A stretch of 34,165 nt of DNA, taken from IMG/VR virus record IMGVR_UViG_3300027985_000326, positions 1-34,165 of that record; one strand, written 5' to 3'. This document shows, in pieces, positions 3,670-34,165 of this stretch. A model generated the notes under the pieces. The model searched no databases. It was not told where the DNA came from and worked only from the letters and a program-made list of their open reading frames with translations. The DNA comes from a virus. Within the stretch, counting starts at the first letter, position 1, and each line of letters opens with the position of its first letter. The translations under genes and the position numbers were made by a program.

Positions 3670-5345
3670 AGCAGGGCTACGGAGCGACGGCCGAGGCATA
3701 TGCGCGCGCTGTTGTGAAAGGTGAGATACCGGCGGGGCGATACATCGTTGCCGCGTGCCGGCGCCATCTGGACGATCTGGAATGGCAGGACGATGACGGG
3801 TTCAAGTTCCGCTTCGACCCAAAGGCCGGGGCTCGGGTCTGCGCCTTCATCGAGCAACTGCCACACACCAAGGGGAAATGGGCGGCCAAGGGGGAACGCC
3901 TGAAGCTTGAACCGTGGCAGGTGTTCTTCATCGTCTGCCTATTCGGGTGGCTGCGGAAGAAGGACGGGAAGCGGAGGTTTCGCAGGGCGCTGCTGCTGGT
4001 GCCGCGGAAGAACGGAAAGAGCGCGCTTGCCGCGGGAATCGGGCTTTACATGCTCTGCGCCGATGGGGAACACGGCGCCGAGGTCTATTCCGGCGCTACG
4101 AGCGAAAAGCAAGCATGGGAGGTCTTCCGTCCGGCGAAGCTGATGGCGCAGAAAAGCCCGGCGCTGGTCGACCATTTTTGCCTGACGGTCAACGCGAAGA
4201 ACCTGCACATCATCAGCAATGGGTCTCGGTTTGAGCCGATCATCGGGAACCCCGGAGACGGGGCCTCTCCGTCCTGCGCCATCGTCGACGAATACCACGA
4301 GCACGACACTGACGCGCTTTATTCGACCATGGAAACCGGGATGGGGGCACGGGAGCAGCCGCTCATGCTGGTGATCACGACCGCGGGCGACAATATCGCC
4401 GGGCCCTGCTACGCGATGCAGCACGAGGCCCAGCAGATGCTGGATGGATCGCGCCGAGATGATGAGACATTCGCGCTGATCTATGGCGTGGATGATGGAG
4501 ACGACTGGACAGACCGGGCGGTGCTGCGCAAGGCAAACCCGAATTTTGGGGTGAGCGTCTTCGAGGACTTCCTTCTGGCGCGGCAGGCAGAGGCCATGAA
4601 CAGCCCGCGCAAGGCCGGGGCGTTCAAGACCAAGCACCTCAATATCTGGGTGCAGAGCCGGGCGGCCTATTTCGACACGCTGCGATACCAGAAGGCGCCA
4701 AAGGTCAGGCTTGAGGATTTCGAGGGGCAAGAGTGCATCATCGGCATTGACCTTGCCGAGAAGCGAGACCTCACGGCGGTTGAACTGCTGTTCCGCCACG
4801 GCGACGGCTTCGCGCGCTTCGGGCGCTACTACCTGCCCGAGGAAACGGTCGATCGGCCGGAAAACGAACACCTGCAGCGGTGGCGCGATGAGGGACTCCT
4901 GATCCAGACGGACGGCGCCGTCACCGACGACCGCGAAATCCGCGACGACATTCTGGAGCTGGCCGAGCGGTTTAAAGTGCGCGAAGTCGCATTCGACCCG
5001 CTGCACAGCCGGCAGATGGCGGTGGAACTGATGGAGCGTGGCTTGACCTGCATCGACTATGCGAACCGGCCAACGCTGATGAATGAGCCGATGCGCAAGA
5101 TGGATGCGCTGATCGCGGACGGGAAACTGGCGCATGACGGTGACCCCGTCTTTGCATGGATGGTGTCGAACGTCGTGAACCGGAGCCGAACCGGCGACAT
5201 TCACAGCCCGGCGAAAGAGCGGGCAGAGAACAAGATCGACGGGCCGGTGGCCTGCATGATGGCGCTCGGGCGGTGGCTGCTCGATGAGGCCGGAGACGAG
5301 AGCACCCCGTGGGATGCTGACCCAGATTACAGGATGGCGATCTGA
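3666..5345 (+). CDS. Terminase large subunit
   Basis: 559 aa. Walker A-like 'VPRKNGKSALAAG', Walker B-like 'AIVDEYHEH', C-terminal nuclease-size domain. Located between TerS and portal. Confidence 0.9.
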   Translation: MKQGYGATAEAYARAVVKGEIPAGRYIVAACRRHLDDLEWQDDDGFKFRFDPKAGARVCAFIEQLPHTKGKWAAKGERLKLEPWQVFFIVCLFGWLRKKDGKRRFRRALLLVPRKNGKSALAAGIGLYMLCADGEHGAEVYSGATSEKQAWEVFRPAKLMAQKSPALVDHFCLTVNAKNLHIISNGSRFEPIIGNPGDGASPSCAIVDEYHEHDTDALYSTMETGMGAREQPLMLVITTAGDNIAGPCYAMQHEAQQMLDGSRRDDETFALIYGVDDGDDWTDRAVLRKANPNFGVSVFEDFLLARQAEAMNSPRKAGAFKTKHLNIWVQSRAAYFDTLRYQKAPKVRLEDFEGQECIIGIDLAEKRDLTAVELLFRHGDGFARFGRYYLPEETVDRPENEHLQRWRDEGLLIQTDGAVTDDREIRDDILELAERFKVREVAFDPLHSRQMAVELMERGLTCIDYANRPTLMNEPMRKMDALIADGKLAHDGDPVFAWMVSNVVNRSRTGDIHSPAKERAENKIDGPVACMMALGRWLLDEAGDESTPWDADPDYRMAI

Positions 5346-9670: not shown

Positions 9671-10026
9671 CGGTGATCGGAGCCGACCGAGTAATGCGAA
9701 AGATCTCGCAGCTGCCAGATCGCATAAAATCCAAGGTCGACGCCTCGGTCAAGAAATCCGGTGACGAGCTTGTACGCACTGCAAAGATGCTGATCCCGAT
9801 CGGCGGAGATGTGCACGGTGACGGACACGAGCGCGAAAAGATCAAGGCGACGCAAAATGCCGATGGCTCGGTTCTGGTGGACTTTGGGCCGAAGTCGAAG
9901 GTGATCGAGGGAGAGAGCGGGCCGCGGCCTTTCGTGAATCCGGCGCTTGCTGTGCTTCGCAAGAAGCACAAAGCGCGCGCAAAGCGGGCAGTGAACAGAG
10001 CAGTGAAGGAGCTGTTCAGTGGCTGA
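9667..10026 (+). CDS. Tail component, HK97 gp10-like
   Basis: 119 aa. 'VMRKISQLPDRIKSKVDASVKKSGDELVRTAKMLIP...RPFVNPA' pattern. ATGA overlap. Confidence 0.75.
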   Translation: MTVIGADRVMRKISQLPDRIKSKVDASVKKSGDELVRTAKMLIPIGGDVHGDGHEREKIKATQNADGSVLVDFGPKSKVIEGESGPRPFVNPALAVLRKKHKARAKRAVNRAVKELFSG

Positions 10027-10429
10027 CGGCCCCGCGCTCGCCCTGCAAGCCGCGCTGGTTGCGGTACTGCGAGCCGATGCTGGCGTTGCGGCGCTGGTGG
10101 GCGCGCGGGTCTATGATGAGCCACCGGACGGCGCGATGCTGCCGCTGGTGCGCATCGGCATGATCGATGCTGCCCCGGAGCGCCTGAGCTGCCGCACCGA
10201 CGAGGACATCACGTTCTCAATCGAGGCTCACTCGCGCCCCATCGCTGGACGTGTTGAGGCCTCGCGCATTGCCCATGCGATCCGGGTCGCGCTCGATGAA
10301 ACCGATTTCGCTGTCACCGGCTATCACCTCGACTGGTGCCAGTGGCTCACGCAGGCCGTCACGCGTGCTGCGGACGGTAAAACCTATGTCGCCACGGTCG
10401 CCTTTCAGGCGGCCCTGAGCGCGCCCTGA
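10019..10429 (+). CDS. Tail completion protein (DUF3168 / gp11-like)
   Basis: 'LQAALVAVLRADAGVAALVGARVYDEPP...PLVRIG' is typical of DUF3168. GTG start overlaps the upstream gene. Confidence 0.75.
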   Translation: MADGPALALQAALVAVLRADAGVAALVGARVYDEPPDGAMLPLVRIGMIDAAPERLSCRTDEDITFSIEAHSRPIAGRVEASRIAHAIRVALDETDFAVTGYHLDWCQWLTQAVTRAADGKTYVATVAFQAALSAP

Positions 10430-10468
10430 TGCCCTTGGGCAAGGCAATCTCAAGGACAGGAGCCTGAC

Positions 10469-10894
10469 ATGGCAAAGCAAAAGGGGCGCACGCTCCTGGT
10501 CAAAATTGGTGACGGGGAGGTCGGCGAGACGTTCTCGAGCCTCTGCGGTCTGACCTCGAAAACGCTCACGATCAACAACACCGAGATCGATGTGACCACG
10601 GCTGACTGCACCGATCCTGGCGGCGCGTTGTGGACCGAGGTTCTCGCCGGCGCCAAGCGCGTGAGTGTCACCGGGAACGGTCTGTTCCTCGATGCCACGA
10701 GCGAGGCCAGAATGAACACCGTCGTCATGGCTGATGACCCTGTCGCGAACTTCCAGGTTGTCGTGCCGGACTTCGGCACCTTCGCGGGCGCGTTCTTCGT
10801 GTCGAGCGTCGATTACGGCGGCGAGCAGGAGGGCGGCGTTACCTACTCCCTGTCGCTGGCATCGACTGGTCCTGTGACGTTCACGGCGGCCTGA
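10469..10894 (+). CDS. Major tail (tube) protein
   Basis: 141 aa. 'GRTLLVKIGDG...FSSLCGLTSKTLTINNTEIDVT' resembles TP901-1-type tube proteins. Strong RBS AGGACAGGAG. Confidence 0.82.
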   Translation: MAKQKGRTLLVKIGDGEVGETFSSLCGLTSKTLTINNTEIDVTTADCTDPGGALWTEVLAGAKRVSVTGNGLFLDATSEARMNTVVMADDPVANFQVVVPDFGTFAGAFFVSSVDYGGEQEGGVTYSLSLASTGPVTFTAA

Positions 10895-11274
10895 TGGCTA
10901 TCGCGGACAGCGCCCCAGTCCTGACTGAGGAGATTGGCGGAGAGCCCCGCCGTCTCCTGCTGCGGAATGCCGAGATCGAGCGCTTCGAGATGCAGCATGG
11001 CATGGGCATCTTCGAGTTGTGGGACCAGCTGTGCGGTCGCGGACCTGCCCCGCAACTGCGCCATATCCGTGACTTGATCGCGCTCGCCATGGTGGGCGGT
11101 GGGATGATGGATCGCGCCGCCGATGCTGTCATGGCCGGGGTTTGCCTTGACCGCGCGCTTGAGCTTCGAGTCACGGCTCAGCGCGTTCTTGGCGTGGCGT
11201 TCCTGCCGTCGATCCTTGATCCGGATGCGGGTAAAAAAAAAGCTGGCTCGTCGCGGGCAAAGAAGAGCGCGTGA
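10894..11274 (+). CDS. Tail assembly chaperone (G-like, zero-frame product)
   Basis: Lies between the tube and tape-measure genes. Ends 'AGKKKAGSSRAKKSA' just after an A9 run. Confidence 0.75.
   Translation: MAIADSAPVLTEEIGGEPRRLLLRNAEIERFEMQHGMGIFELWDQLCGRGPAPQLRHIRDLIALAMVGGGMMDRAADAVMAGVCLDRALELRVTAQRVLGVAFLPSILDPDAGKKKAGSSRAKKSA
11233..11241 (+). promoter_or_regulatory. A9 slippery run for a programmed -1 ribosomal frameshift
   Basis: G GGT AAA AAA AAA G. The -1 frame has TAA at 11232-34 and is then open from 11235 through to 11471. Confidence 0.65.
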
Positions 11275-11471
11275 CGCATTGGGGCACGGCTGAGCGGGTG
11301 CGCAATATCTGCGGCACAATGGGGAGGCTGCCCGCCGAGGTGCGGGCCATGACGCCAAGCGAAACAATGGATCTCGTTGCGGGCTGGAATGCAGCACAGG
11401 CCGAGGCAAGCGGAAAGGTCGAAGCCCCGTCGCGGGCGGTCACTGAGGATCTGATGGCGCGCTATGGCTGA
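11235..11471 (+). CDS. -1 frame extension of the tail chaperone (T-like part, made as a GT-type fusion)
   Basis: The -1 frame opens exactly at the slippery run. The track ORF 11271..11471 is the same frame but has no convincing start or RBS of its own. Confidence 0.6.
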   Translation, partial: KKSWLVAGKEERVTHWGTAERVRNICGTMGRLPAEVRAMTPSETMDLVAGWNAAQAEASGKVEAPSRAVTEDLMARYG

Positions 11472-11893
11472 GCGCGCAGGGCTTTTTCCACAACCTGAAT
11501 GCAGAATGCAATCAACTCTGCATCTGGCTGATGCTTCTTCATGCAGGCCTCGGTGGATTTCTTGGTGATCATGTCGCCGCCGGCCATGTCATGTTCCACA
11601 CGTCGCGCGGCAACTTGTTGCTTCGCAGCGCATTGCCGGATCATAGCCCAGTCGAACCGCCACTTGCGCTCGCAGCTTTCTATGGCGCGTCGAGAAAAAT
11701 CGCTTTGCGCGGTATCTAGAATGATCTGCGCGCGCGTGAAATCAGCCCGATTCCGGTCGATGCACTGCCATACATCAAAGTTTTCCGGTCCGACTAACGG
11801 CTCGCAATAGGCACGCTGATCCGCCTCGGAAAAAATGAAGGCTGATGCAGGCGAGGCTAGTGTCGCGCAAGCAACTGCAAGGCGAATAATCAT
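11462..11893 (-). CDS. Antisense moron: secreted 143-aa protein with three Cx13C units
   Basis: ATG 11893 with GAGGA 7 nt upstream. Signal peptide 'MIIRLAVACATLASPASA'. Six mature Cys arranged as 3 x C-X13-C. Local GC about 55%, below the genome average. It is the C-terminal third of track ORF 11462..12739. Confidence 0.7.
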   Translation of the reverse strand: MIIRLAVACATLASPASAFIFSEADQRAYCEPLVGPENFDVWQCIDRNRADFTRAQIILDTAQSDFSRRAIESCERKWRFDWAMIRQCAAKQQVAARRVEHDMAGGDMITKKSTEACMKKHQPDAELIAFCIQVVEKALRAQP

Positions 11894-11912
11894 GGCGAAT
11901 CCTCGGTGAAAA

Positions 11913-14204
11913 ATGTCTGAAGATCTCGAACGTATCACGATTCTCCTGCAGGCCAAGGACAAGGATTTGACGCGGGCATTGGACCGCATGAACAAGAAAA
12001 TCGAGGCATCGACTCGTGCTGGGCGAAACAATGTCAGAAAGATGAATGAGGATTTCGACAGCCATATGGCGAAGATGTCGAAAAGCGTGCTTGGCCTCGG
12101 TGCATCATTCGTAAAGGGTCTTGCAGTCGGTGCCATTACCACAGCGTTCTCAGCTGTGACCTCGAACATCAGACAGACCATTGTTGGCATCGCGGAAGTC
12201 GGAGACGAGGCGAAGCGCTCTGGCCTTGGCCTCGAGGCATTCCAGGAGTGGAAATATGTAGCCGAGCAAAACCGCATCGGGGTGGATAGCCTGACGGACG
12301 GGTTCAAGGAGCTTTCCCTCAGAGCTGATGAGTTCATCACGACCGGAGCCGGCTCTGGAGCGGAGTCTTTCCGTCGCCTTGGGCTCACCGCATCAGATCT
12401 GAAGGAAAAGCTGAAAGACCCGTCAGAGCTCATGCTGGAGATCATCGGCCGCCTCGAAGGAATGGATAAGGCAGCGCAGATCCGCATCGCTGATGAAGTC
12501 TTTGGCGGCACCGGCGGCGAACGTTTCGTCGAGCTGCTGAGCAAGGGAGAGGCTGGCATCCGTAGCACCATTGCCGCGGCGCATGAGGCCGGCGCCGTTC
12601 TCGATGCCGAGATGATTGCGAAGGCCGATGAGATCGACAAGAAGTGGAGCTCCCTCACCACGAAAATTGGCAGCTGGCTGAAGCTGGTGGCCATAAGTCT
12701 CGCAGATCTACCGTTCGATATGTTCGACACGCGCATCAACGAGATTTTCGGCAGTGAGGCTCAGGCTCGTTCGATCCTCGGAGATCAGGCATTTGAAGAG
12801 CTACGCGCGGCAGTAGCGCTAACAGATCAGCAGGCGGATGCGGCAGAGGGGTTGCGGGGGATCTATCAGGGCATCGCGGATGATGCGAGCCAGTTGTCGA
12901 TGGAACTGGCTGGAGCTGCGAGCATGGCAGACATGCTCGGGAACGACGATCTATGGAATGTGCTGGCATCGGCATCGAATGACATGCGGGATCTGGAGGA
13001 TCATTTTGCGGCTGGGGAGATCAGCGGAGATCAGTTTGCGACGTCGCTTGAGGCGGTCAGGTCACGCGCAGCTGATGCGCTTTCACAGCTGAGCGACATC
13101 GACAAGCAGGGCTTTTCCGGGGTGATTTCTAACCTAGGATCAATCGGAGATGCGCTGACGTCGCTCATTCCAAAGGCATTGGCGCTCAAGAATGCCCTGC
13201 CTGGAAAACCGGTATCACCGACTGAGAAAGATGACGGACACGGGTTCGCGACTGGCAATGCCGACAATGCCTGGACCGGGACGAGCCTCGCACCGACGAC
13301 GACGCCAAAGCCGACGAGCGCACCATCAAATCTGGATTTCGATTGGACTGGTAAGAACTGGGGAAAAGGCGGCGGCGGAAAGAGCAGCCGGTCCAGCGAT
13401 AATTTCGCCAATCAGATGGACAAGTTCAAAGAGGAGACGGCGGCGCTGATCGCCGAGGCTGAGGCTCTGAACAATGCAGCGCTTGGTTTCGATGAATACG
13501 GGATCGCGCAGGACGTCGCGCGCCGGAAGGCTGAGCTGCTCCAAGCAGCGCAGAACGCGGGAAAGAAGATCACGCCTGAACTTACGACTGAGATCGATGC
13601 ACTTGCGGAGAGCTATGCCGATGCAGCGCTCCGTGCGGAGGAGGCACGGAAGCGTCACGACGAGTTCAATAGCGCTCTGGACGGCATGAAGGGAACGATG
13701 AGCAATGCATTCGAGGGTCTGGTGACCGGGGCAATGTCATTCAAAGACGCGCTGCGTTCGGTTATCGCGCAGCTCGCGGCGATGGCTGCACAGCGGGCAT
13801 TCTCGGCGCTTTGGACTGGTGGGCTCGGGGCATCGACTGGCGGGATTCTCTCTGGCCTATTCGGATTTTCCAGCGGCGGATATACCGGCCCCGGAGGTCG
13901 CAATGAGGTGGCCGGCATTGCGCACAAGGGCGAGGTTGTCTTTTCGCAGGACGATGTGCGTCGAGCTGGCGGCGTGGCAGCAGTCGAAGCCGCACGGCGC
14001 AGCGGCATGGCTACGGCGCAGCCAGCTCGATCAACGGTGGCTCAGCCTCAGCCGCAGGCGACGCAGGTATATGTCACCCCGTCACCGTATTTCGATGCCC
14101 GCGTGAGCGAGATCAGCGGCTATGGCGATGCCGTCGTGAGCCGTGCCCAGCGACAGGCGATGCCGGGGATGATCCGGGATGCACAGGCACGGGGGCTGCT
14201 GTGA
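11913..14204 (+). CDS. Tape measure protein
   Basis: 763 aa, helical and repetitive, Gly-rich C-terminal region, located after the chaperone pair. Confidence 0.88.
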   Translation: MSEDLERITILLQAKDKDLTRALDRMNKKIEASTRAGRNNVRKMNEDFDSHMAKMSKSVLGLGASFVKGLAVGAITTAFSAVTSNIRQTIVGIAEVGDEAKRSGLGLEAFQEWKYVAEQNRIGVDSLTDGFKELSLRADEFITTGAGSGAESFRRLGLTASDLKEKLKDPSELMLEIIGRLEGMDKAAQIRIADEVFGGTGGERFVELLSKGEAGIRSTIAAAHEAGAVLDAEMIAKADEIDKKWSSLTTKIGSWLKLVAISLADLPFDMFDTRINEIFGSEAQARSILGDQAFEELRAAVALTDQQADAAEGLRGIYQGIADDASQLSMELAGAASMADMLGNDDLWNVLASASNDMRDLEDHFAAGEISGDQFATSLEAVRSRAADALSQLSDIDKQGFSGVISNLGSIGDALTSLIPKALALKNALPGKPVSPTEKDDGHGFATGNADNAWTGTSLAPTTTPKPTSAPSNLDFDWTGKNWGKGGGGKSSRSSDNFANQMDKFKEETAALIAEAEALNNAALGFDEYGIAQDVARRKAELLQAAQNAGKKITPELTTEIDALAESYADAALRAEEARKRHDEFNSALDGMKGTMSNAFEGLVTGAMSFKDALRSVIAQLAAMAAQRAFSALWTGGLGASTGGILSGLFGFSSGGYTGPGGRNEVAGIAHKGEVVFSQDDVRRAGGVAAVEAARRSGMATAQPARSTVAQPQPQATQVYVTPSPYFDARVSEISGYGDAVVSRAQRQAMPGMIRDAQARGLL

Positions 14205-32994: not shown

Positions 32995-33407
32995 TGAAGC
33001 GAGCCGAGTTCACCGTTCCTGGGCTGCCAAAGGGGAAGGCCCGCCCGCGCGCGACCTTCGTGAACGGCCGGGCTCGGCTCTACACCCCGAAGACCACTGT
33101 CGAGTTCGAGGACAAGGTGCGCACCGCGGCTACGCCGCATTTCAACCGGCCCATCAGCGGGCCGGTGAAGCTGCGCATCGTCGCCTATTTCCCCATGCCG
33201 AAGAGCTGGTCGAAGCGTCGGCGCGCGGAAATGGACGGCAAGCTGCACACGCAAAAGCCGGACAAAGACAATGTGGAAAAGGCGATCTGCGACGGCCTGA
33301 ACGGCACGGCATGGGTCGACGATTGTCTCGTGGCCGATGGCCGGTGCGTGAAGCGCTGGTCCACCGTCGCCGAGACATTCGTGCAGGTCGAGGAGGTCGA
33401 GGAGTGA
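32994..33407 (+). CDS. rusA: RusA-family Holliday junction resolvase
   Basis: 'FTVPGLPKGKARPR...', 'KPDKDNVEKAICDGLNGTAWVDDCLV' are RusA signature blocks. Confidence 0.88.
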   Translation: MKRAEFTVPGLPKGKARPRATFVNGRARLYTPKTTVEFEDKVRTAATPHFNRPISGPVKLRIVAYFPMPKSWSKRRRAEMDGKLHTQKPDKDNVEKAICDGLNGTAWVDDCLVADGRCVKRWSTVAETFVQVEEVEE

Positions 33408-33508
33408 GCCCCGAGAAGACGACGCAGGTGCCAGCGTCTGCCGCTCCAGCATGGAGGAGCATCGGCTCTATCGCAGCCGAAATCGTGAAGAAAGCCTCTG
33501 GAAAATGA
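33404..33508 (+). CDS. Candidate 34-aa ORF between rusA and dnaB
   Basis: GTGA overlap with the rusA stop and ATGA-type overlap with the dnaB start. No RBS evident. Confidence 0.3.
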   Translation: MSPEKTTQVPASAAPAWRSIGSIAAEIVKKASGK

Positions 33509-34165
33509 ACACCGTGACCGCCATTCGTGCTGATGCGCTCCCGATGAATATCGAGGCGGAGCAGCAGCTGATCGGGATGGCACTCCTGGAGCCGTCGATC
33601 CTGTCGCGCATCGCCATGCGTGGAGGGGCCGCCCTGTTCGCTGAGCCGACGCATGCTCGCGCATTCGAGGCTATGGTCGCCAAGGAGCGCGTCGGGCACC
33701 AGGTAGATATTGTGACGGTCGGGGAGGCCATGAGGGGGGAGGAGTGCCTCTCCGCTCTCGGCGGGCCGTCATATCTGGCGCGCTGTGCAGGGGCCTGCAT
33801 GAGCCCTGTCGCGGCACCTGGCTACATCGACATTTTGGCAGATCTCGCCGCCAAGCGCAGCCTGATCTCGGCCATGTCGGAGGCGCAAGCATCCATTGCC
33901 CGCGGTGACATGCAGGCCGCGCAGATCGCGGCGCGGCTGGAGGCGTCTCTGATCGCGGCATCCGACGTCGACGCAAAGCGCGGTCCCGTGTCGATGCAGG
34001 CCGCCGTTTTGAAGGCGCTCAAGGGCATCGTCGCCGCCTACAACGGCGAGAAGACCGAGGCCGTGCTGACTGGAATCGGCGCACTTGACAGGATCTGCGG
34101 TGGTTTTAACCCGGGCGATCTGATCATTCTCGGCGGCAGGCCGTCGATGGGAAAGACTGCGCTCG
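33505..34165 (+). CDS. dnaB: Replicative DNA helicase DnaB-like, N-terminal part (runs off the window end and continues at 1..875 on the circle)
   Basis: ATG at 33505 overlaps the upstream TGA (33506-08). The frame stays open to the window end. N-terminal 'NIEAEQQLIGMALLEPS' is DnaB N-domain-like. The frame is continuous with 3..875 through the repeat; the joined ORF is 1,392 nt (463 aa). Confidence 0.85.
   Translation, partial: MNTVTAIRADALPMNIEAEQQLIGMALLEPSILSRIAMRGGAALFAEPTHARAFEAMVAKERVGHQVDIVTVGEAMRGEECLSALGGPSYLARCAGACMSPVAAPGYIDILADLAAKRSLISAMSEAQASIARGDMQAAQIAARLEASLIAASDVDAKRGPVSMQAAVLKALKGIVAAYNGEKTEAVLTGIGALDRICGGFNPGDLIILGGRPSMGKTAL
34022..34165. repeat. Terminal direct repeat copy 2 (identical to 1-144)
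   Basis: Same as copy 1. Position 34022 corresponds to position 1. Confidence 0.97.

Follow-up and report, generated by a model that had tools for sequence, protein, structure and literature searches.

The genome analysed here, IMG/VR virus record IMGVR_UViG_3300027985_000326 (34,165 nt, called the window throughout), belongs to a temperate siphovirus resembling Rhodobacter phage RcapNL and carries a minus-strand gene between the tail assembly chaperone gene and that of the tape measure protein. This gene is best explained as a moron encoding an exported protein, which would act in the periplasm as an exclusion factor benefiting the lysogen. Taken as a whole, this statement is put forward with guarded confidence; the part of it according to which the gene is a moron, has an exported product and is expressed separately from the late operon is highly probable, and superinfection exclusion as the specific role is a tentative assignment, proposed only from position, compartment and analogy. 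The gene and its ribosome-binding site (RBS) are located as follows:

11462–11893, minus strand: moron gene encoding a 143-aa precursor, identified by translation, syntenic homologues, the ratio of nonsynonymous to synonymous substitution rates (dN/dS), the family alignment and AlphaFold modelling
11900–11904, minus strand: RBS GAGGA with a 6-nt spacer to the ATG, read directly from the sequence

The list of open reading frames (ORFs) indicates that the minus-strand frame of the gene remains open to position 12739 (425 codons), antisense to the tape measure gene. The start was placed at the ATG at 11893 because of the GAGGA site, the homologues of equal length, the agreement of independent gene calls (two public contig copies) and the signal-peptide-like N-terminus, which begins at residue 1. 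Homologues use the same start and have an identical length, and GAGG/GGGG occupies the equivalent RBS place in the homologous loci L001 (Logan contig) and L003 (IMG/VR contig). The moron ATG is separated from the tape measure ATG (11913) by 19 nt (11894–11912), and this spacer carries both back-to-back RBSs of the divergent genes, the Shine–Dalgarno sequence of the tape measure gene being GGTGA. At the 3′ end the gene converges with the T-frame ORF of the chaperone (11271–11471), overlapping it by exactly 10 nt (11462–11471). According to gene calls, it is the sole opposite-strand gene between the terminase and the tail fibres. The GC content of the ORF is 55.1% and its third-position GC content (GC3) is 59.7%, compared with a GC content of 63.0% for the window and GC3 of 72–85% for the neighbouring structural genes; only 1.7% of 432-nt windows have a GC content as low. 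The preliminary description of this DNA, made from the sequence alone, had reported the 143-aa ORF with its GAGGA site, the 10-nt convergent overlap, the exceptional strand within the late region and a local GC content of about 55%, and all these features were recovered; the close divergent starts that it described also stand, with 19 nt lying between the ATGs.

Homologues having the same site and orientation are present in L001 (62% identity), L003 (57% identity) and RcapNL (L004, NC_020489; 58.5% identity over residues 21–143). Pairwise dN/dS values between the carriers are 0.07–0.12, equal to or below those of the flanking structural genes, and six cysteines are invariant among the carriers; as judged by this comparison, the minus-strand ORF is a real gene under strong purifying selection. 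In the GenBank record of RcapNL the moron frame is disrupted and annotated only as the 86-aa gp17. Over 4366 nt, RcapNL and L003 show exactly two differences, both of them single-T deletions in T runs (positions 4541 and 5999 of L004, versus 2362 and 3821 of L003; the one in the moron lies in a T6 run). One of these deletions breaks the moron gene (gp17), the other splits the tape measure gene into gp18 and gp19, and both genes are intact in L003. A tape measure is indispensable to a phage that has been obtained as virions, so both frame breaks are most likely homopolymer sequencing errors. The preliminary description had considered a disrupted frame in related phages to be a finding that would speak against it, and the break in RcapNL, most likely a sequencing error, does not represent such a case. 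The fused 190-aa chaperone gp16 of the RcapNL record may share the sequencing-error cause. The literature on RcapNL does not mention the moron gene and contains no transcript data.

These data also bear on the suggestion that the ORF is non-functional, being either a frame that is open by chance opposite GC-rich coding DNA or what is left of a decaying gene. The 425-codon open minus frame, of a kind common opposite GC-rich genes, and the disrupted frame in the RcapNL GenBank record would agree with it; at the same time, the ORF lies in DNA that is noncoding on the plus strand and absent from relatives, the dN/dS values are 0.07–0.12, the protein has 56 family members and a model with a predicted local distance difference test (pLDDT) score of 93, and the RcapNL break is paired with a break in the tape measure gene by homopolymer T losses. 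The non-functional reading, with a practically negligible probability, is refuted by the conservation and family evidence.

Comparison with related phages delimits two overlapping segments, neither assigned to a strand:

11472–11912: 441-nt insertion relative to non-carrier phages, flanked by ATGGCTGA (11464–11471) and ATGTCTGA (11913–11920)
11456–12145: mosaic low-GC block of ~690 bp, comprising the gene and ~250 nt upstream of it (tape measure codons 1 to ~80)

The gene is absent from L014 and L015 (IMG/VR) and L061 (metagenome), the chaperones of which are 62–63% identical to that of the window; in all three, the T-frame stop of the chaperone overlaps the tape measure ATG as ATGGCTGA, leaving no room for a gene. 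Because three relatives have the chaperone stop overlapping the tape measure start, the 441 nt are regarded as an insertion and the gene as a true moron, in agreement with the preliminary description. In the window, ATGGCTGA is a relic of the old junction, from which the C-terminal codons of the moron (Q-P-stop) are read, and ATGTCTGA is the new tape measure start. The two sequences constitute a near-perfect 8-nt direct repeat around the insertion, which may have arisen by duplication during insertion or may reflect a rebuilt context of the tape measure start; the tape measure gene lost its translational coupling to the chaperone gene and acquired its own GGTGA site. The sliding identity between the window and L001 is 85–100% up to position 11455 (at least 90% from ~11040), ~60% in the block and ~80% beyond it, and the sliding-window similarity between L001 and RcapNL is high only within the block. 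The block has a GC content of 53.9% and contains the stretch of lowest GC content in the window (11691–12122). It follows from the mosaic pattern and the GC minimum that the exchanged unit comprised the gene and ~250 nt upstream, with the first ~80 tape measure codons. Judging by these profiles, the gene lies in a recombination-bounded, compositionally foreign block.

The N-terminus of the encoded protein (residues 1–18) contains R4, the hydrophobic stretch LAVACATLA and the sequence ASA|F, and is followed by a mature part of 125 aa with three C-x13-C units (residues 30–44, 74–88 and 117–131). Within the family described below, the three repeat units are mutually homologous (hhalign probability 99%, E-values 4e-18 to 9e-20). 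AlphaFold modelling based on a 35-sequence alignment predicted six helices (residues 23–34, 38–60, 65–78, 82–105, 108–121 and 125–140) forming three hairpins, with a pLDDT of 93.3 and a predicted template modelling (pTM) score of 0.82; a model made with two sequences only (pLDDT 52) was discarded. The cysteine pairs are placed four residues before and six residues after each hairpin turn, a geometry that suits an intra-hairpin disulfide, and we infer three such disulfides from the model. Both the repeats and their interpretation as helical hairpins had been proposed in the preliminary description, together with a structure prediction as a check, and the predicted structure agrees with them. 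The lipoprotein reading was rejected: Cys9, which homologues do not conserve, is too near the N-terminus, and there is no conserved lipobox. The sole hydrophobic segment is the N-terminal signal-like region, and the remainder is modelled confidently as a soluble six-helix protein. Searches with the window protein in Pfam, PHROGs and NCBIfam found no family match at E ≤ 1, and a sequence search of the PDB with the family profile returned nothing at E ≤ 10. CHCH (twin Cx9C) proteins are eukaryotic proteins of the mitochondrial intermembrane space that contain two disulfides per hairpin. The likeness to them is architectural only, consisting of a helix-turn-helix hairpin stapled by disulfides in an oxidising compartment; the Cx9C spacing and the two disulfides per hairpin differ, and no sequence similarity is known.

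A profile search of genome and metagenome contigs with a two-sequence profile revealed no relatives; an exhaustive hidden Markov model (HMM) search with a two-sequence profile among 1.84 billion representatives revealed 56 relatives at E ≤ 1e-3. Most of them are 145–155 aa long, are matched end to end and have a hydrophobic N-terminus and three repeats, the consensus repeat being C-x2-[KE]-W-G-x-D-[YF]-x-M-[VI]-x-[YF]-C-[IV]-x-x-Q. In other members there are one to six repeats, which either stand by themselves or are joined to DUF4124, TPR, nuclease-like or membrane-anchor modules. Arrays of repeats at the C-terminus are joined to other N-terminal parts in P0022 (DUF4124) and P0020 (a sub-threshold TPR match in Pfam); by eye, P0053 begins with a nuclease-like part and P0037 with a Cys-pair motif and, after it, a hydrophobic segment. 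The fusions hint at a binding or anchoring role of the repeat. Six cysteine columns are invariant in the 29- and 35-sequence alignments, and Q92 is conserved as well. The window protein is a divergent member, 16–30% identical to canonical members; its repeat 2 (CERKWRFDWAMIRQC) is canonical, and repeats 1 and 3 are degenerate, having lost the W-G-x-D-[YF]-x-M core. No model in Pfam or NCBIfam covers the family, its NCBI members are all annotated as 'hypothetical protein', and PHROG 25501 (function unknown) matches four members. A Pfam search with 10 relatives gave only sub-threshold noise, such as DUF2256. Matches to Csx20 (PADLOC/NCBIfam) were rejected as spurious, with canonical relatives scoring 14–16 bits over short stretches against a cut-off of 70 and the window protein giving no match. 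A literature search for 'CX13C' together with 'periplasmic' found nothing. Thus, the statement in the preliminary description that no family is recognised holds for curated databases; the protein is not an orphan.

A strict DNA motif scan located canonical repeats in 38 loci of named genomes, among them many Rhodobacterales, Pseudomonas, Halomonadaceae and Desulfobacterales, as well as Bacteroidota and others, and in seven IMG/VR contigs. A census of 104 flanking ORFs revealed mostly unrelated housekeeping genes and a minority of S24/helix-turn-helix (HTH) regulators, with no consistent functional partner. Four of the seven nearest relatives of the window protein could be mapped (P0003, P0004, P0012 in Rhodobacter sp. 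NTK016B, and P0040), and all four are found in prophages beside an HTH/S24 regulator at the early switch, two of them antisense to neighbouring early genes. P0047 lies in opposite orientation to its neighbours in a lambda-like phage. In two prophages with a nearest-subfamily member, genes for an Acb2/Tad1-hairpin-like protein (an anti-defence sponge family) are located in the same early region, ~2.2–2.6 kb downstream of the family member (L011, 10624–10854; L012, 2820–3050). A distinct four-repeat version (155 aa; in L018 and L026 the longest ORF measures 177 aa) is common to Halomonadaceae genomes (L026, L046 and L049; Salinicola, Halomonas and Chromohalobacter) and viral contigs (L017, L018 and L020–L022; IMG/VR), which suggests another independent phage-borne lineage. 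As far as can be judged from sequences, this is a host family from which temperate phages repeatedly took copies, matching the picture of gp15 of phage HK97 and YebO.

Since the gene lies on the opposite strand, its transcription must be independent of the late operon, and with only 19 nt of noncoding DNA upstream, any promoter of the moron must lie within tape measure codons. A candidate is as follows:

11956–11929, minus strand: candidate promoter in tape measure codons 6–15, TTGGCC, 16 nt, TG-n-TACGTT (extended −10 type)

The carriers share the minus-strand sequence TTGGCC, 16 nt, TG-n-TACG(T/C)T, in which carrier-specific codon choices create the TTG of the −35 element and the second-position A of the −10 element (GCC AAG versus GCG CGG, and CGT versus CGC). 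The pattern TTGNCN-N13-TGNTANNNT, defined post hoc, has a single match in the whole window on either strand, with 0.06 expected. In a scan made without L061, the promoter-like site was found at the homologous place in all carriers (L001–L004) and not in the non-carriers L014 and L015. The sequence pattern is suggestive of a promoter at 11956–11929, to be taken as a hypothesis. On the plus strand, a terminator-like hairpin (11457–11477, GCGCGCT...AGCGCGC followed by CTTTTT) is situated exactly at the insertion junction and, if active, would attenuate late transcription into the tape measure gene. As a plus-strand terminator it was discarded, such hairpins being at chance level (two found, 1.5 expected) and no T run following it in L001 and L003.

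The arrangement raises the question of whether an antisense RNA might be the main product, silencing leaky tail genes in lysogens or tuning the ratio of chaperone to tape measure. The predicted 5′ untranslated region is complementary to the RBS and start of the tape measure gene, and with no terminator the transcript must enter the chaperone gene; against this stand the dN/dS of 0.07–0.12 for the protein, the invariant cysteines and the membership of a family with a confident fold, so that an RNA effect would be at most additional. An RNA as the main product is very improbable.

By definition (sensu Juhala/Hendrix), a moron is extra DNA compared with relatives and has an atypical composition, its own promoter and terminator and prophage expression (PMC3594210). 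Two of these four features, the absence of the DNA from relatives and the atypical composition, are found here. Gene 15 of phage HK97 lies between the tail assembly chaperone and tape measure genes and excludes superinfecting phages (PMC3594210), which confirms the positional parallel drawn in the preliminary description. The window gene occupies the same slot and is likewise an add-on of atypical GC content that related phages can lack. The bacterial family of gp15 occurs mostly outside prophages and gp15 acts in the cell envelope (PMC3594210); the window protein appears to be host-derived too. There are also differences: gp15, a small protein, becomes inserted into the inner membrane (PMC3594210), whereas the signal peptide of the window product looks cleavable and its body is modelled as a soluble six-helix protein. 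There is no sequence relationship between the two, the window protein having no Pfam match at E ≤ 1 and its HMM relatives forming a different family, and homology to gp15/YebO is not supported. Unlike HK97 gene 15, the window gene is on the opposite strand and has only 19 nt upstream and no terminator that could be found.

The bor gene of phage lambda is an opposite-strand gene of the late region, near the lysis genes, encoding an exported lipoprotein that is expressed in lysogens and confers serum resistance. The likeness consists in an antisense accessory gene of the late region with an envelope-targeted product, and it gives a logic for expression in the prophage state; bor differs in encoding a lipoprotein of another family at another location, the window protein being without a conserved lipobox.

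An alternative is a lysogenic-conversion factor unrelated to exclusion: the gene on the phage would retain whatever the chromosomal family does in the periplasm, such as binding to a component of the cell wall or outer membrane, protecting against envelope stress or giving immunity against a periplasm-acting toxin, and the lysogen would profit from it. Canonical members are chromosomal and have no phage genes nearby, and the repeats also occur in fusions with extracytoplasmic modules (DUF4124, TPR, nuclease-like and membrane anchors), as is often the case for binding or anchoring modules; the host ancestry of HK97 gp15 fits either reading. Such a factor is nevertheless rather unlikely: the four members of the nearest subfamily that could be mapped are all carried by phages, the slot next to the tape measure gene is that of a proven exclusion gene, and no conserved neighbour hints at a toxin/immunity pair.

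The T4 protein Spackle, a small periplasmic disulfide-bonded helical bundle, blocks the incoming tail lysozyme and thereby superinfection (PMC7677548). The traits of being small, α-helical, disulfide-bonded and periplasmic are also predicted for the window protein; Spackle, in contrast, is a non-repeat product of an early gene of a lytic phage and has one disulfide, and the window protein has three predicted ones. This resemblance, together with the endolysin of the window phage, a GH24 lysozyme with PG_binding_1, could point to a periplasmic inhibitor of peptidoglycan hydrolases (Spackle-like or LprI-like) guarding the wall of the lysogen from the lysozymes of related phages, whether tail-associated or released, and the preliminary description had offered a similar guess. 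An inhibitor of this kind is improbable. No Pfam match to lysozyme inhibitors (LprI/DUF1311, Ivy, MliC/PliC and PliG) was found in the window protein or 10 relatives, and homology to them is not supported. There is no fold support either: the DUF1311 structure 3gi7 appeared in the Foldseek search of the PDB only with an E-value of 8.4 and template modelling (TM) scores of 0.18–0.25, and no Spackle, Ivy or MliC entries were among the PDB matches listed for the window model. In addition, no hydrolase domain was detected in the tail proteins of the window phage that were scanned.

Returning to the periplasmic exclusion factor, the proposed course of events would be as follows. The precursor would be exported by Sec and cleaved after ASA18, and periplasmic oxidation would give the mature protein, compact and six-helical, its three intra-hairpin disulfides. 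Transcription would start from the weak candidate promoter inside the first tape measure codons, and the moron would be expressed mainly in the lysogen, when the late operon is silent, as may be supposed because the gene is head-on to that operon, the phage is temperate and the nearest relatives are located at lysogeny switches. The periplasmic factor would then hinder a step of envelope crossing or DNA delivery by superinfecting related phages, to the benefit of the lysogen; it might bind the tail tip or tape measure of the incoming phage, or else a periplasmic partner in the host on which the phage depends. Precedents are provided by HK97 gp15, which excludes from the inner membrane, and by T4 Spackle in the periplasm. 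A bolder and rather speculative version makes the protein the founder of a new class of periplasmic exclusion factors recognising the incoming tape measure or tail tip. In this version, the gene would move together with ~80 tape measure codons since factor and target, or factor and hidden promoter, must match, the block keeping the pair matched, and the unterminated antisense transcript would additionally silence the tape measure start in lysogens.

Several observations weigh against this interpretation of the gene as an independently expressed, exported exclusion factor. The putative signal peptide, also named in the preliminary description, was judged only from visual inspection and a crude hydrophobicity/AxA heuristic, which 31 of 35 family members pass. 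The low-GC trough corresponds to 11456–12145 and continues, in a weaker form, over most of the tape measure gene; since it reaches into that gene, composition alone does not single out the ORF. A standard sigma-70 scan found no promoter for the moron, the candidate site failing in it, and the promoter-like site is weak, its pattern having been fixed after the site was seen. Terminator scans found no intrinsic terminator for the moron on the minus strand, for which the preliminary description had seen no room; RNA folding of the 3′ end gave a GC hairpin across the moron stop codon that is without a U tract and has a non-significant z-score. Foldseek searches with the pLDDT-93 model against the PDB and BFVD revealed no neighbour (best E-values 1.3–1.4); the TM scores did not exceed 0.31 (normalisation to a single viral target of 78 residues gave 0.44), and the globins and phycobiliproteins among the matches are generic helical noise. 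PADLOC assigned no defence family to the window protein, and neither the sequence nor the model contains a pointer to the target. Finally, because canonical members are mostly chromosomal and lie near unrelated housekeeping genes (P0029 is plainly chromosomal), the ancestral function was probably not anti-phage, and the phage copy may retain a housekeeping role.

The window is a complete temperate siphovirus genome of the RcapNL type. The gene order begins with a DnaB-like helicase, which the contig end truncates, and the two terminase subunits (small and large), portal, protease and capsid, continues with head-tail connectors, the major tail protein (PF06199), a GTA-gp10-like chaperone, the moron, the tape measure and tail tip proteins, and ends with the GH24 endolysin, integrase, S24 repressor and RusA; the integrase and the S24 repressor mark the phage as temperate. 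The window starts inside the DnaB-like helicase gene (1–875) and ends in the early region (33000–34165), and these contig ends are consistent with a complete circularly permuted phage genome and not with a prophage having host flanks. A tblastn search with the chaperone against isolated phages revealed a sole relative, RcapNL, a temperate prophage of R. capsulatus SB1003. In L001, PAPS_reduct-like and Csf3-annotated genes (9734–11033) are located upstream of the terminase. The genes on either side of the moron are:

11271–11471, plus strand: T-frame part of the tail assembly chaperone, in the −1 frame relative to the G part (10894–11274), its last 10 nt shared with the moron
11913–14204, plus strand: tape measure protein, 763 aa, matching phrog_10574 (E-value 6.7e-123), divergent from the moron

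The G part of the chaperone shows similarity to PF11836 (E-value 4.6e-06; 27.1 bits, just below the gathering cut-off of 27.8) and to phrog_8985. Near the end of the G frame there is an A9 run (11233–11241, GGT AAA AAA AAA GCT), with the T part following downstream in the −1 frame, and this candidate slippery site is likely to be a programmed frameshift site yielding the G–T fusion. The N-terminal two thirds of the tape measure gene (11913–13592) have a GC content of 50–58% and a GC3 of 60–67%, below the rest of the phage, and the 194 N-terminal residues of the tape measure protein are only 31–71% identical among carriers, compared with 91–97% identity of the upstream tail genes between the window and L001; the low GC content and the divergent N-terminus point to a second mosaic zone.

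Morons of the tail operon are a known source of prophage defence and host-fitness genes, HK97 gp15 being the founding example in this slot. In the slot of HK97 gene 15, the window gene represents another solution, unrelated to the first, with the opposite strand, an exported-type product and a putative promoter-in-codons architecture; as there is no room for regulatory DNA of its own, codons of an essential structural gene would have to contain the promoter. What is new here is this opposite-strand layout with a putative promoter in codons, the undescribed family with its predicted fold, and the recurrent capture of the family by temperate phages. The annotation of RcapNL is corrected as well, gp17 (86 aa) and the split tape measure probably being products of homopolymer sequencing errors. 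The gene offers an entry point to a widespread unnamed family of disulfide-stapled hairpin repeats, which has a confident predicted structure for which the PDB and BFVD searches gave no fold neighbour, and the repeated capture of its members by temperate phages at lysogeny-associated positions leads to a concrete and testable hypothesis of function. By analogy with the systems compared above, the product probably alters the cell envelope of the lysogen and perhaps keeps other phages out.

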